In this document: piece after piece, positions 48,001-57,000 of the stretch
How the letters are laid out: each line of letters opens with the position of its first letter
Position numbering within the stretch: position 1 is the stretch's first letter
Assembly (NCBI GenBank): GCA_050173015.1
Contig: JBFXLE010000009.1
Location: 64,001 to 128,000, forward strand
Direction of reading: 5' to 3'
Length of the DNA: 64,000 nucleotides
Source of the DNA: Calditrichaceae bacterium
Lineage (GTDB): Bacteria; Calditrichota; Calditrichia; Calditrichales; JBFXGD01
Made by a program: the position numbers

Positions 48001-51000
48001 CAACCGTCAGAATAATTATGGTATTTTTGCTGCATGAAGAAAAAAGAAAATATGGAAATAGCCACCGCACAAATGGCATATTTGGTTTTTGCCGACGCAC
48101 AGCCAAACGCTGAAAAAACCAAAAGAGCCATTTCTTGCCATCTCACGACTGAAAGATAATGATATGACAACATATAAAAATCAAAATCCTGAACAAATAG
48201 CCAGAGACAAAATTGACAAAATGTTAATTGAAGCTGGTTGGATTGTTCAATCTAAAAATGAAGTTGACTTGGGTGCAGGCAGAGGTGTTGCGTTGAGAGA
48301 ATACCAAACGGAAACAAAATTTGCGGATTATGTGCTGTTTGTTGACAAAAACCCTGTTGGAATTATTGAGGCAAAAAAAGAAGACGAAGGACATAAACTA
48401 ACCGTAGCGGAAGACCAAGCCTCTGAATATGCCAAAGCAAAACTAAAATATTTGGATAACGACCCATTGCCTTTTGTTTTTGAGAGTACCGGAACAATAA
48501 CCCGTTTTAGAGATACACGAGACCCAAAACCAAGAGGGCGACATATTTTTTGGTTTTACCGTCCCGAAACATTGGCGGAATGGCTACAAAAAGATAAAAG
48601 TTTAAGAGGTAGATTATTAGATATTCCGCAATTAAATGAGACTGGGCTTCGCCCTGCTCAAATTAAGGCGATTAATAACCTTGAACAATCTTTTAAAAAG
48701 AACAAGCCAAAAGCTTTAATACAAATGGCTACCGGAGCAGGTAAAACTTTTACTGCCTGTACTTTTGTGTATCGCTTATTGGAACACGCCAAAGCCAAAC
48801 GGATTTTATTTTTGGTTGACACCAAAAACTTAGGAGAACAAGCAGAACAGGAGTTTATGGCTTTTCAGCCCAACGACAGCAATCGCAAATTCACAGAATT
48901 GTATAATGTACAGCGTCTTACTTCAAGCTACATAGCAAGCGATAGTCAGGTTTGTATCTCTACCATTCAACGGATGTATGCCATTTTAAAAGGTGAAGAA
49001 CTAGACGAAGGAGCCGAAGATACAAACCCGAACGAATCGACCTGGATGGAACAACAGCGAAATAAAAAACAGGCAATGCCTGTGGAATATTCTGCCAAAG
49101 TACCCATTGAACAATTCGATTTTATTGTAATTGATGAATGCCACCGCTCTATTTACAATCTTTGGAAACAAGTGTTGGATTATTTCGATGCTTTCCTTAT
49201 CGGCTTAACTGCCACACCCGATAAGCGAACTTTTGGCTTTTTTGAGGAAAATGTAGTGAGCGAATATACCTATGAAGAATCTGTGTTGGATGGTGTAAAT
49301 GTTCCTTACGATGTGTACAATATTGAAACTGAAATTTCGCAAAAAGGCAGTGTGATAAAAGCAGGTTGGTTTGTGGACAGACGAGATAAGCTCACCCGAA
49401 AAACGCGTTGGCAACAAGAAGATGAAGACACCGAATATTTGAAAAACGATTTGGATAAAAAGGTCGTTAATCCAAGCCAGATACGGAATATTATTCGCCA
49501 ATACAAAAAAGCATTGGAAACCGAAATTTTCCCGAACAGAAAAGACGAAAATGGAGAATACGAAGTTCCTAAAACACTGGTTTTTGCAAAAACTGACAGC
49601 CACGCGGATGATATAATCAAAATCATTCGTAAAGAATTTGACGAAGGCGATGATTTCTGCAAAAAACTGACTTATAAAATAAAAGAAGACCCAAAATCGG
49701 TGTTAAACCGTTTTCGGAATTCATATCATCCCCGCATTGCGGTTACGGTAGATATGATTGCAACGGGAACCGATGTAAAACCTTTGGAAGTGTTGTTGTT
49801 TATGCGTGATGTTAAAAGCACCAACTACTTTGAACAAATGAAGGGTAGAGGAACACGCACCATTAACAAAGATGCTTTTCAGGCAAACAACACCAATGTA
49901 AAAGGGGCTTGCAAAACCCATTTTATTATTGTGGATGCAGTTGGCGTAACAAAGTCGAAGAAAACCGACAGCCGGCCTTTGGAACGCAAACCAACTGTAG
50001 CCTTAAAAGATTTATTGGGAGCGGTAACAATGGGAGTTACCGAAGAAGATTTGTTTCTTTCGCTTGCAAATCGTTTGATACGATTAGAAAAAGAAATTAC
50101 CGACAAGGAAAAAGATAAATTACTGGAACATTCCAAAGGCAAAAATCTGAAACAAATCAGCAAAGAATTATTATCGGCTTTTGATAAAGATGAAATTGAA
50201 AACAGAGCACAGGAAAAAATTGAAAAATTCTGTAAAGACGCCCTACAGGGCGTCTCTTCTGCTGCCGATTTATCTCCGGCACAAATAGAATCTTTCCGAC
50301 AGGACGCACAGAAAGAATTGATTAATACCGCCGCTTCTACTTTTAACGGAAAGCTGAACGATTATATTGAAAAAGTGCGTATGGAACACGAGCAAATTAT
50401 CGACAGCCACAATATCGACACCGTAACAAAATCGGAATGGGACACCGCTTCGGTGGATAAAGCCAAAGAAACTGTAAAAGATTTTAACGAATACCTCGAA
50501 GCCAATCAGGACGAGATAAAAGCATTGACCATTTTTTACAAACAACCCTACAACCGCCGAAACATTACCTTTAAAATGATTAAAGATGTGTTTGATAAAC
50601 TGAAATTGGATAAACCCACCCTTGCCCCCGATTATGTTTGGGCGGCATACAGCCAATTGGAAGAGGTAAAAAGCAAACAACCGATTGACGAACTCACCGC
50701 GTTAATTTCGTTAATTCGCAGGGCTTGCGGAATTGACAGCGAGTTGAAAGCTTTTGATTCCACCATTGACGAAAATTTCAAAAACTGGATTTTCAAACAA
50801 AACGCAGGCAAGCACAACCGCTTTACAACCGAACAAATGGACTGGCTGCGAGAACTGAAAAATCACGTAGTAAATTCGTATCACATAGAAATTGAAGACC
50901 TCGATTATACACCCTTTGATGAAAAAGGAGGACGTGGCAAAATGTACCAACTCTTTGGTGCCGAAATGAACGATATTATTAATGAACTTAACGAGGTATT

Positions 51001-54000: not shown

Positions 54001-57000
54001 TAGCCAATACACGCAGAATGTGTTTGATGAACATGTTTTTGCACAACATTGGCGAAATTGATGGCGAAACACTCATTTCTTCAGCTGATGCTTTGGTTTC
54101 GGACAATGGCATACGCTACGATTATGTGCTGGCAAATCCGCCTTTTGGTAAAAAAAGCAGTATGACCATTACCAACGAAGAGGGCAAACTGGAAAAGCAG
54201 GATTATACTATCAATCGTCAGGATTTTGTGGCTACCACAGCCAACAAGCAACTAAACTTTTTGCAACACATAAAAACGCTTTTAAAACTCACAGGCGAAG
54301 CAGCCGTTGTACTTCCCGATAATGTTTTGTTTGAGGGCGGAGCAGGCGAAACGGTTCGGAAAGAATTGATGAAAACAACCGAATTGCATACAATTTTAAG
54401 ACTTCCAACAGGTATATTTTACGCACAAGGTGTAAAAGCAAATGTTTTGTTTTTCGACAACAAACCAGCTTCAAAAGAGGCTTGGACAAAAGATGTTTGG
54501 ATTTATGATTATCGAAGTAACATAAGCCACACATTAAAGAAAAACCCAATGCGATTTGAGCATCTACAGGAATTCGTAAAACTCTACAATCCCGAAAACC
54601 GAAATAAAAGAACAGAAACGTGGAGCGAAACAAATCCCGAAGGCAGATGGAGAAAGTATAGTTATGCTGAAATCATTGAACGAGATAAAACCAACTTGGA
54701 TATATTTTGGATTAAAGACAAAAGCTTAACCGACTTAGATAATTTACCCGACCCCGATATTTTGGCAAACGAAATCATTGAAAACATTGAAGCCGGATTA
54801 AATAGTTTTAAAGAAATAATGGAAACAATAAACGGAGATGAAAGCTAAGCCCAGCCCAAAAACCATACACATTTGCAATTCGCGCGAGCCAACGCTTGAC
54901 CAAAAATTGCAAAAGAGTATGTCTTGCCAACGCACGGACAGAGAATGCAGCAAAAATGAAAGATAAATTGGCTGGAAAAATAAACAACGAAACGCTAACA
55001 CGCGGTATAAAACATTGGGGTTTAAGTATTTATTCGAGCGTTCTACCCCGCATCAAGTTCGGTGTAACTCGACAGGATAGTAGCCCGCAATCCCTTACGA
55101 GTCATACACTCAAAGTTAGTTCCAAGCCTAAAAAATAGAAACAACAAGAATAAAATATTTGCCAAAAGGATGAAAATAGAACGCCGCCTATGCGGCGTTA
55201 TTGTTTTGCAACGCGGTTGCTTGCACAGGATAGGGATTTAAGGTATATTCAGGAGTAGTTAGGTCATAATCGTTCCGGGACTACTGAAATTTGCGCACAT
55301 CTCAAAAAAGTCTATTGATAAAAACAGTAATCCTACGGATGATATCTTTGAAAGGGATTAGATAATTGTAAAAGAAATATATAAACAATTGTTCATACAC
55401 CGCCAATTTGGGCGGATAAGAACAATAGAATATATACGAACGTTGTGTGGCATTAGAAGTAACTTACATAAAAAAGGGTGACTTATGGAAATAAAATTTG
55501 ATGTGGAAATACAAGATGAAGAGAAAGAACTTCTGAAAACGATATTACATTGTGATAATGATGAAGACTTAAATAATCTCTTGAATAAATTAGGCCGTTC
55601 TTCATTTGAAGATATTAGAAGAATGACAATTGGACAAAAAGTATTTACTCGTGGAAGAGATATTTTAGAATATCGGTTATTTAATTTAATAAAGTTTTTC
55701 TTCGATGGGAAAATACCAGACGAACAAAAAATATGTGATTTATTCCAAATAACGGCAACTGAAAGTCGAGCATTTATTCGCTCAATAATGTCAAAGTATC
55801 AATATGACTTAAAAGAAACAATATCTTCAACATTAAAAGAACAAGTAGAAAATATTCAAAAAGAAGAAAATGAAGAAGTTTATAAACTTTCCATTCAAAA
55901 CCAGTATTTCAAAGATGAATTAAATAGAATATTAGGAACAATAGACACAAGTTTACCGATTATTGAAAAAGAGCGGGGAACTATTTCTACTTATGTAATT
56001 CAAACATCATCTTACCAGAAGTTATGTGAACATTTTGGCATTGAACTAGAAGAAGAAAACAATGAAAACTGATTTACCTAATTTATTAACTGCATCAAGT
56101 ATTCTATTGGGAATTATTACTGCATTATATGGTTTATTTTTTCCTGCGATTAATTCAATTTTAGTAATAAAATCTAAGCCCCATAAGGTTGATAATAAGA
56201 AGGCCTACAGTGAAAGCAAGGATATTATAAAAGCAAAATATATTCCATTATTAATTGGTTCGTTAGTAATTACATTGATAAACATACCAGAGCTGTTTTC
56301 TCAATTAAGAAATAGTTTTGTTGCAATAAAAACTAGTGGAATAGAGAACACAACATATGATACGTTAACAGCATCATTTATTGTCGTTTGCCTTTTTATG
56401 ATTTTCATTACGATAATGATGATAGCAACTGGTTTTAAGTTAAGAAAGAAAATAAAAGAACTTAATCCAAATGAACAATAACGCCACACAACAAAAAATA
56501 TAGTGCATTTGGCAGATGGTGCTAAAAATGAAAATGATTGCAATAAATGAACATAGTAGTAAATTGAAAGCTTGGAGCGTTGAAATGCCAAACGCACCAT
56601 ATTCAAACCGTTGTATGCCATGCTGGAAACGAGCTAACCGCACAAATAGCACATTTGGTTATTGCTGACACAAAAGCAAAGGCTGAAAAACTAAAAGAGC
56701 TATTTTATTGTCAAACGCACATAGACTAAAACTAAAAATGAATGAAGAAATAGTATCAGCAAGTGGAGAAAGAGCAGCAATGGGAGGCTATTTGCCTCAA
56801 TTTGATGAGTTCGCTTGGTTTGTCTATTTGAATCTAATAAATAAAAAGCTTGAATGGATACGAATAGCAGACTCCAAGGCTGAAAAACTAGATGATATAC
56901 AGTATTCTACTCATTCAGAAATTCATGCATACCAAGTAAAATGGACTATCGCTGATGCAAATATATCATTTGCAAATTTTACGGATTTGTTTCCTCTTAT

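Follow-up and report, generated by a model that had tools for sequence, protein, structure and literature searches.

Repeat-framed cassettes in the five type I operons

All five operons with hsdR, hsdM and hsdS in this Calditrichaceae genome have a small gene with its own framing repeats at a boundary between hsd genes: in three of them a RAYT of subclass 2.4, in one a Y1 gene resembling subclass 1.2, and in one a triplicated GxxExxY gene. Inserts of this sort had been claimed in an earlier note on this DNA. One of these operons lies on contig C9 in the window, by which we mean the whole stretch of 64,000 nucleotides that was analysed. Type I operons are a preferred habitat of such cassettes, neither exclusive nor obligatory. 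We consider it probable that nuclease cassettes from several unrelated families, armed with hairpins and lacking promoters of their own, settle at the junctions of operons, and that in mobile operons which swap their hsdS they are carried along with the conserved backbone; most likely, they are hitch-hikers rather than working parts of the restriction system.

Judged by their sequence, the predicted operons would encode type I restriction-modification (R-M) systems, having hsdR, hsdM, a two-TRD hsdS and open frames. Gene order is hsdR-hsdS-RAYT (52701-53312)-hsdM in the window, M-S-RAYT-R on contigs C1 and C45, M-S-Y1-RhuM-R on contig C10, and R-GxxExxY-M-RhuM-S on contig C7, where the GxxExxY gene is present three times in a 469-bp tandem array. 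The cassettes lie between hsd genes and on the same strand in 5/5 cases here and in 19/19 matches in relatives (whose genomes bear L-numbers below), and a sixth methyltransferase-plus-S pair (C1:68-72 kb) has neither hsdR nor a cassette. A Y1 census of the genome gave nine loci, four of them inside hsd operons, which bears out the earlier count of four in nine for 'RAYT' loci; a Y1 match at C5:142570 was discarded as a long unrelated protein. Together with one GxxExxY locus and one four-helix-bundle locus, these nine give 11 cassette loci, of which 5 fall within 0.86% of the genome (binomial, 2e-8). With the cassette queries used, none was found at the genome's own three cas loci, and two GIY-YIG queries gave no match to a single-domain (Ssn-type) GIY-YIG nuclease in this genome.

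In the window, hsdR (48089..51010, + strand; first ATG at 48164), whose product has an EcoEI-like C-terminus, is followed by the two-TRD hsdS (51010..52548, + strand), the 779-bp cassette (52549..53327, + strand), which extends from the hsdS stop to the hsdM start, and hsdM (53328..54848, + strand). The empty site in orthologues of this operon consists of a stop codon, one base and ATG; L159-L164 have the operon in this empty form. The left arm of the cassette (52555..52628) contains an imperfect hairpin (52555-52589) and a perfect 29-nt double-foot REP (52600-52628). The RAYT gene (52701..53312, + strand; 203 aa, subclass 2.4) has intact NHVH, WQ and YIVNNP motifs and a dN/dS of about 0.18, and carries between HUH and Tyr an in-frame insert (52965..53091, + strand) of 12-nt tandem repeats, a perfect REP (53028-53056) and 6-nt tandem repeats that vary in number. 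Promoter-like matches within the cassette number 9 (shuffle mean 4.0, sd 2.1), and no such match precedes the RAYT start on the + strand; the cassette probably has no promoter of its own. Two further repeats are found in the hsd genes themselves. A REP-like hairpin, in frame within an hsdR loop (50232..50257), has arms identical to those of the cassette REP and a different core; the hsdR of L008 has a different REP-like hairpin at the matching site, and the hairpin is missing from the aligned RAYT-less orthologues and from the RAYT-bearing L197. A degenerate copy of the cassette REP (51598..51626) lies in the inter-TRD linker of hsdS as a net 27-nt in-frame insertion, L197 carries another REP at the matching site, and the hsdS linker of the C7 operon also bears a repeat footprint.

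Cassette families and known systems

The RAYTs of C9, C1 and C45 share the motifs NH[IFV]H, WQ and YIxNNP, adjoining long or double-foot GTAG REPs and an in-frame REP between HUH and Tyr with TnpA-REP subclass 2.4, which corresponds to RAYT Group 4 (Quentin et al. 2018, PMC6006769; Bertels et al. 2017, PMC5581495; E. coli TnpA-REP, PDB 4ER8). Copies are few and divergent as in that subclass, but the REPs of this genome's RAYTs are confined to about 2.5 kb around the gene rather than spread, and the NF047646 matches stay under the profile cut-off (60 vs 80 bits). An IS200/IS605 insertion sequence was rejected since, apart from local tandem duplicates, the copies are only 34-75% identical, not several near-identical ones. 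In-frame REPs in linkers or loops also resemble the intragenic GTAG REPs of Di Nocera et al. 2013 (PMC3733652). Restriction operons are unmentioned in the main texts of PMC6006769 and PMC5581495, and restriction genes are unnamed in that of PMC3733652.

The C10 gene has the short core and Y..NQ..HH tail (YILNQPEHH) of TnpA-Y1 subclass 1.2 (Quentin et al. 2018), an assignment made by motif comparison with the published table, not with the authors' profiles. Unlike that subclass, which is described as generally lacking terminal structures, it is framed by long A/T-rich hairpins, and Tyr replaces the second HUH His (H-V-Y in place of H-V-H), while H-x-H is intact in 6/6 close relatives. Both the Y...NP signature and an intact HUH are missing, which excludes it from the RAYTs (class 2). 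Nor are C10-type Y1 genes hsd specialists (of 8 matches, 0 have an hsd gene within 1.5 kb), and a broken hsdS at C10 was ruled out, as a GTG start follows the hsdM stop. The C7 genes score above the cut-off of TIGR04256 / PF13366; they belong to the PD-(D/E)XK family, not HUH/Tyr, and their arms are imperfect inverted arrays without a GTAG-footed hairpin, so that they are not a REP/RAYT system. Among the listed papers that name GxxExxY, we found no description of its repeats or mobility.

These differences narrow several statements of the earlier note. Its description of the inserts as RAYT or GxxExxY genes holds for C9, C1, C45 and C7 and fails for C10, and its label 'REP-nuclease' suits three of the five genes, not the C10 Y1 or the C7 GxxExxY. 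The palindromic repeats that it ascribed to each cassette are well founded for the RAYT REPs, which fold better than shuffles (z -3.2 to -9.8), but the tested C7 arm pair does not (z -0.8), and the A/T-rich C10 arm motif has many further matches outside the operon. A different repeat in each operon was also claimed; the C9 and C45 REPs have their 10-bp arms in common and differ only inside.

Our literature search found no published account of repeat-framed nuclease cassettes in type I R-M operons. A close parallel is with genes embedded in type I R-M, BREX, DISARM and Hma, which in Payne et al. 2024 (10.1101/2024.01.29.577857) are likewise inserted between hsd genes, in the same orientation (96.7%), with varied cargo per slot; TgvAB (PMC11411939) and, as cited in that literature, PrrC and RloF are further examples. 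These studies leave out mobility genes and concentrate on defence effectors, and repeat-framed cassettes are not treated in the passages covered. The repeat-gene-repeat design also recalls the Ssn GIY-YIG nucleases with their NTS/SRM repeats (Chenal et al. 2025, PMC11893778), and Ssn-type genes fill hsd junctions of relatives; however, the RAYT and GxxExxY folds differ from GIY-YIG, and none of the five cassettes is an Ssn/NTS system. The main text of PMC11893778 contains neither 'operon' nor 'hsd'.

Enrichment in relatives and in a second phylum

In 60 relatives, 9/43 hsdM loci have a RAYT or GxxExxY gene within 5 kb, against 0.46 expected; in a second phylum such genes lie near 11/136 hsdM loci, against 1.0 expected. 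All of them are on the same strand, and the enrichment in the two phyla is approximately 10- to 20-fold. Hsd operons house 10 of the best 80 RAYT relatives, again all on the same strand. When Y1 genes are included, the operon span (259 kb) contains 11 genes and the flanks (217 kb) contain 0 (P 0.0013). Cassettes are thus inside operons, not in flanking islands, and defence-island clustering, the rival that the earlier note had itself raised, does not account for the enrichment. None was found at type II/III methylases (0/115) or, among the matches listed, at flippases (0/148); these are also mobile and variable yet unenriched, and therefore mobility alone is insufficient to explain the preference for hsd operons.

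The preference is far from absolute. Only 8/18 complete type I operons of relatives hold a cassette, and the 5/5 occupancy here is in the upper tail. Loci near hsdM make up 3-8% of all RAYT/GxxExxY loci, and about 95% of cassettes are elsewhere, many in housekeeping operons. The gene upstream is co-oriented for 60/75 RAYTs and in 33/37 GxxExxY regions (the latter counted by eye). The junction of the arsenic operon (7/38 hand-picked GxxExxY regions) is re-colonised as often as hsd, and re-colonisation is also seen at junctions in cas operons; cas1 loci are also enriched (3/46 vs 0.39 expected), although one of the three matches (L274) lies beyond the array, outside the operon. The term 'hotspot' in the earlier note is borne out by the enrichment inside operons in two phyla, but in the sense of a preferred habitat only, in view of this occupancy, the small share near hsdM and the re-colonised arsenic junction.

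Origins and retention of cassettes

In a RAYT tree, which omits the near-copy in L175 and the RAYTs of L053, L063, L125 and L170, hsd-resident RAYTs take up 16/114 rows and need 14 changes (shuffles 15.3, with 75/500 as low), and a dedicated hsd clade was rejected because these rows are scattered over the tree. Supported branches force at least 10 separate RAYT arrivals, in a tally that wrongly counted row L278 as hsd; L278, a non-hsd site with metabolic neighbours, holds the nearest relative of the C1 RAYT. The hsd-resident GxxExxY genes form three lineages. In orthologues of the window operon, the same junctions are empty or hold RhuM, YhcG, Schlafen, AbiEii, MNT-HEPN, four-helix-bundle or RAYT genes, and cassette families in relatives also include GIY-YIG/Ssn, DUF559 and four-helix-bundle genes. 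An apparent RAYT-HsdR fusion in L129 was ruled out, the genes being in different frames.

Between the window and L008, dS is 0.90 for the RAYT, 0.77 for hsdM and 1.34 for hsdR; the REP is identical and the junction different. In contigs of run X2, both TRDs have been exchanged while the cassette and the REP of the linker are retained; contigs of run X3 have an empty site. We saw no fresh, near-identical cassette copy at a second site.

Hitch-hiking and alternative explanations

We propose that a convergent set of cassettes, each with one nuclease-type gene (HUH/Tyr RAYT 2.4, Y1 subclass 1.2, PD-(D/E)XK GxxExxY and others in relatives) framed by its own repeats, may be self-mobile, with proteins that would cut the hairpins. 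Their co-oriented position at operon junctions genome-wide might arise because they persist downstream of host promoters. Two features would make type I operons a preferred sink: their stop/start junctions may serve as tolerant cargo slots, and the operons would travel between lineages and swap hsdS domains through recombination within conserved flanking sequence, so that a cassette on the backbone would hitch-hike. A resident cassette would stay intact, shift between junctions, amplify in tandem and drop in-frame repeats into nearby linkers. 'Genomic sink' and linked transfer are among the possible causes of embedding named by Payne et al. 2024. If the cassettes are mere hitch-hikers, they belong to mobile-element ecology and are not a new system. 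RAYT subclasses gain a measured habitat common to several unrelated gene-plus-repeat cassettes, and the question 'parasite or servant' can be put to the test at a single locus with filled, empty and otherwise filled alleles. Guilt by embedding will also catch such cassettes, and GxxExxY proteins are likely to yield new repeat-guided nucleases.

Several observations count against this reading: the hsd preference without enrichment at type II/III methylases or flippases, the lack of a fresh cassette copy at a second site, the excess of promoter-like matches within the cassette over shuffles, and long residence under purifying selection (dN/dS 0.06-0.33), which fits host benefit equally well. The most far-reaching alternative, which we consider unlikely, is that at least five unrelated folds converged on the gene-framed-by-hairpins design and that type I operons keep such cassettes because these would cut or rejoin single-stranded copies of the operon, governing entry and exit of hsdS alleles. 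The double-strand system would then contain a further layer, acting on single strands, that restricts DNA and controls alleles, and GxxExxY proteins would be site-specific ssDNA nucleases of a family not yet described. Domesticated single-strand restriction, which we regard as quite unlikely, would by analogy with SsnA have the nuclease cut incoming single-stranded DNA bearing its repeat, gate hsd allele replacement (allele locking or biased exchange) and complement the double-strand type I enzyme. SsnA cuts single-stranded DNA at its hairpins and reduces integration of repeat-flanked DNA (PMC11893778), Ssn-type genes fill the same slots in L142, L143, L148 and L332, and one and the same slot has been filled by several unrelated folds, with purifying selection on the genes. 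The many cassettes in housekeeping operons, the cassette-less majority of complete operons, the C10 copy without its second His and the replacement of TRDs around an intact cassette argue against it. Four-helix-bundle proteins are not known to have nuclease activity, which also speaks against this reading.

It is very unlikely that the cassettes are embedded anti-phage effectors with incidental repeats: the same slots do carry known or predicted defence genes (Abi2, DarTG, SAVED, GmrSD, AbiEii, MNT-HEPN and RhuM, i.e., PDC-S05), and embedded genes are mostly defence-related according to Payne et al., but PADLOC gave no match for the three RAYTs or the Y1, GxxExxY, four-helix-bundle and GIY-YIG proteins, most copies are in housekeeping operons, and the in-frame spread of repeats is as expected of mobile elements. 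Still less probable is active shuffling of hsdS by the RAYT, with nicks at REPs in or beside hsdS starting TRD exchange or deletion. The REPs at 51598 and 52600 flank TRD2, repeat footprints recur in hsdS linkers (window, L197 and C7), 3.4 kb between hsdR and the cassette's left edge are deleted in L175 (97% identical DNA), and a comparable idea was proposed for lanthipeptide genes and then weakened by its own authors; yet the deletion is on one contig, the TRD swap points (about 51432, 51566-51834 and 52282) lie in conserved blocks, not at the REP, in RAYT-bearing and RAYT-less operons alike, and TRDs are shuffled in RAYT-less orthologues too. Chance, small numbers or general clustering is highly improbable: it is refuted for the enrichment by replication in two phyla, the empty flanks, the other methylases and the separate arrivals, and stands solely for 'all five', which was chosen post hoc (P ~0.04 against the relatives' occupancy, hand-computed hypergeometric), given also that kin are not independent and cas1 loci are enriched. 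Least probable of all is that hairpins tune mRNA stability or the ratio of R to M/S subunits and the gene maintains them; stable hairpins do lie between subunit genes and REPs affect mRNA in E. coli, but no type of junction is free of cassettes, and the majority of operons lack one.

Some minor observations concern the junctions and repeats. Two to three of five filled R-S junctions, including those with cargo without repeats, have 6-7 shared bases, too short to call target-site duplication. A REP-to-RAYT joint was seen in X1 (side 33) and may stem from another organism, and the REP pattern occurs at one locus among viral contigs.

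Cassettes within type I restriction operons

In the window, hsdR (48089-51010), hsdS (51010-52548), a RAYT gene encoding 203 aa (52701-53312) and hsdM (53328-54848) lie on one common strand, the hsdS-hsdM gap being 779 bp. A perfect 29-nt GTAG-footed palindrome (REP) is found at 52600, 5' of the RAYT gene, and a second such palindrome lies in frame within that gene at 53028; judging from family membership (PDB 4ER8, E 6e-6), RAYTs may cut hairpins. Subclass 2.4, with its in-gene double-foot REPs, and subclass 1.2 were defined by Quentin et al. 2018 (PMC6006769), and intragenic REPs have been reported by Di Nocera et al. 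2013 (PMC3733652).

Five hsdR-hsdM-hsdS operons and one MTase-S pair without hsdR are present in the genome, which comprises 4.34 Mb in 54 contigs. An earlier note held that all five contain a small nuclease-family gene, and gene order agrees: besides the window operon (contig C9), RAYT is located between hsdS and hsdR on C1 and C45, a 144-aa Y1 gene lies 3' of hsdS on C10, and three tandem GxxExxY genes occupy the hsdR-hsdM junction on C7. Its claim that each operon has a different repeat needs correcting: C9 and C45 have REP arms in common, their REPs differing only in the interior. The genome's Y1 loci, five of subclass 2.4 and four subclass-1.2-like, number nine; four of them are indeed in hsd operons, but not all four are RAYTs as proposed, the C10 gene being a subclass-1.2-like Y1 with H-V-Y where close relatives show H-x-H (6/6). 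Palindromic repeats had also been assigned to GxxExxY; the three tandem C7 genes are there, but the one arm pair tested shows imperfect pairing, with folding no stronger than in shuffled sequence. Counting one GxxExxY and one four-helix-bundle locus, hsd operons make up 0.86% of the genome but hold 5/11 cassette loci (binomial 2e-8).

Enrichment at hsd operons in two phyla

HsdM_N, RAYT 2.4, GxxExxY and controls were searched for in 60 further genomes from this phylum; for the position comparison we dropped the index genome and merged split hits. Among the matches listed, 9/43 hsdM loci had RAYT or GxxExxY within 5 kb (0.46 expected), as did 3/46 cas1 loci (0.39 expected; two inside the operon), whereas N6/N4 methylases (0/115 vs 1.2 expected, meaning no enrichment rather than depletion) and flippases (0/148) had none. 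These counts are incomplete because 53 GxxExxY and 132 flippase matches exist besides those listed and the HsdM_N profile recovered only 4/5 operons of the index genome. In a second phylum, represented by 90 genomes without counting the index genome, RAYT or GxxExxY accompanied 11/136 hsdM loci within 5 kb (1.0 expected) and 15 within 8 kb (1.6 expected), among matches listed that leave 12 further GxxExxY matches aside. In both phyla every listed hit near hsdM was on the hsdM strand. The hotspot claim is thus upheld, although P values are overstated since kin are not independent. Of the best 80 RAYT relatives in GTDB, 10 belonged to hsd operons, while one preceded a ResIII gene and two immediately preceded cas1.

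Defence-island clustering, which the note itself had raised as a rival, is not the cause, because cassette genes lie inside the operons: in 40 hsdM regions (2/43 loci left out), RAYT, GxxExxY and Y1 genes alone numbered 11 in 259 kb of operon span and 0 in 217 kb of flank. Altogether 18 cassette-type genes of six families occurred in 16/40 regions, all within the operon span, with four-helix-bundle, GIY-YIG and DUF559 queries taken from the same regions as were then scanned; framing repeats accompany most genes of these three families, and are absent in L134. Many relatives' contigs (L118-L156) break off inside or beside hsd operons, and occupancy may therefore be undercounted. Cassettes were present in 8/18 relatives' regions having R, S and M hits, so that 5/5 here represents the upper tail (P ~0.04 by hand, chosen post hoc).

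The habitat preference is real, replicated and common to several unrelated cassette families. Nevertheless, most copies live elsewhere: among the matches listed, 5/103 RAYT and 4/146 GxxExxY loci were near hsdM in the first phylum and 3/78 and 8/147 in the second, the remainder being in operons of all kinds (e.g., metG, recA, obg, rnf, haem and sugar-nucleotide genes). The permease-arsC cluster of arsenic operons was the site of 7/38 hand-picked GxxExxY regions from at least 3 lineages (L237, L238, L239, L241, L249, L253 and L259). GxxExxY cassettes from two lineages were seen at an idh-prpD junction, three copies in one rnf region (L272), and cassettes within cas operons (L273, L243, L060, L078) as cas3-RAYT-cas4-four-helix-bundle-cas1, cas1-GxxExxY-cas2, or RAYT flanked by cas1 on one side and by cas12a or a 1550-aa gene on the other. 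A C10-type Y1 gene lies directly 3' of a gene that, by its motif, may encode a type III mod methylase (L318:1495-3430).

Possible explanations

The gene upstream was co-oriented in 60/75 RAYT cases and in 33/37 GxxExxY regions (counted by eye), suggesting reliance on read-through transcription. We consider it probable that the cassettes are promoter-less gene-plus-repeat units which would persist at operon junctions, and that type I operons would gather them since cargo is tolerated at the junctions and since operon movement and recombination could carry along anything on the conserved backbone. This explanation does not account for the lack of an excess at polysaccharide loci or at type II/III methylases. 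Embedding in type I R-M has been discussed by Payne et al. 2024, who raised sink and linked-transfer explanations; TgvAB (PMC11411939) and Ssn (Chenal et al. 2025, PMC11893778) have also been described, and Laurenceau et al. tied TnpA-REP to lanthipeptide genes. Single-strand restriction or allele gating by the cassette nucleases, shown for SsnA, might apply by analogy but seems unlikely here, and embedded defence effectors are less plausible still, no PADLOC match having been obtained. Active hsdS shuffling would be slightly more doubtful again; swap points of the target-recognition domains (TRDs) lie in conserved blocks, with RAYT present or absent, and not at the REP. Chance is very improbable beside the counts in two phyla, and mRNA tuning by the cassettes is the least credible.

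"Restriction" is absent from the main text of Quentin et al. 2018 and, in Bertels et al. 2017 (PMC5581495), occurs in a reference only. Within non-subscription papers we found no literature on RAYT-, Y1- or GxxExxY-type cassettes in hsd operons, and the preference is apparently unpublished; the arrangement is assembled from known parts, any host function being hypothetical.

History of the cassettes and their repeats

A single clade of hsd-resident RAYTs was rejected (14 changes for 16 hsd-resident among 114 rows, one near-copy left out, vs 15.3 in shuffles), and hsd-resident GxxExxY genes fall into three lineages. The C7 GxxExxY is common to two other genomes (G020, G060) at the same junction, while remoter hsdR-hsdM junctions in operons arranged like C7 are filled by a Y1 cassette (L149), RAYT (L336) or DUF3800 (L156). 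Across 80 metagenome loci of the window hsdM, some junctions have no insert, a single base separating stop codon and ATG, and others hold RhuM, YhcG, Schlafen, AbiEii, MNT-HEPN or further genes; 3 loci have RAYT and 4 have four-helix-bundle genes. L008 contains a close orthologue of the window operon (HsdM 93%), whose RAYT is the nearest relative of the window RAYT and whose REP is the same, but its cassette occupies the hsdR-hsdS junction instead of hsdS-hsdM. RAYT (0.90), hsdM (0.77) and hsdR (1.34) have comparable synonymous divergence, and the cassette therefore probably moved along with the operon and switched junction. These RAYTs have a dN/dS of ~0.18; the sole unsaturated GxxExxY pair has 0.06, based on 5 changes. 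Independent-run contigs keep the cassette and linker REP with both TRDs different; in another run's contigs the site is empty.

No GTAG-type REP was found farther than ~2.5 kb from a RAYT gene. The hsdS linker contains a degenerate REP at 51598-51626, inserted in frame with a net gain of 27 nt; of the 44 linkers aligned, only that of L197, also with RAYT, has a REP at this site, of another type. A REP-like hairpin at 50232 in an hsdR loop has a same-site counterpart only in L008 among 16 rows, and the two may represent one old insertion. The C7 hsdS frame contains GxxExxY arm motifs. In L175, 97% identical to the window, 3.4 kb is missing from inside hsdR to the left edge of the cassette, with loss of hsdS; the missing stretch stops ~50 nt short of the first REP and coincides with a short motif that is shared (L175:3340-3410). 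Seen in one contig, this is possibly an assembly error.

Further observations were a RhuM cargo gene whose start nearly duplicates the initial 30 nt of hsdM (L157:257-330), an hsdR-start copy in front of a GxxExxY cassette (L144), and a 674-aa HsdS with an in-frame GIY-YIG domain at the inter-TRD linker (L217:3967-5988). A G+C-rich hairpin lies inside the C10 RhuM gene (L003:8324-8354) and another right after the C7 hsdS stop (L002:4980-4999). A non-hsd RAYT (L007:5500-7450; C10:41.5-43.4 kb) has a triplicated 3' half and long 60-bp repeat arrays, L286 showing a similar duplication; dozens of local repeat arrays without a gene, many with phased purine-rich units, occur genome-wide and are unrelated to hsd cassettes. 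Dispersed repeats of 70-345 bp (46246-46590, 55115-55458, 41863-42126 and 63051-63117; 48064-48133 and 56637-56705) lie on both sides of the window operon and its neighbours, an Avs1b-like NACHT gene (56708-62809) and a Stk2-like gene (43880-44737), resembling a gene-cassette array; the operon may itself be a cassette.
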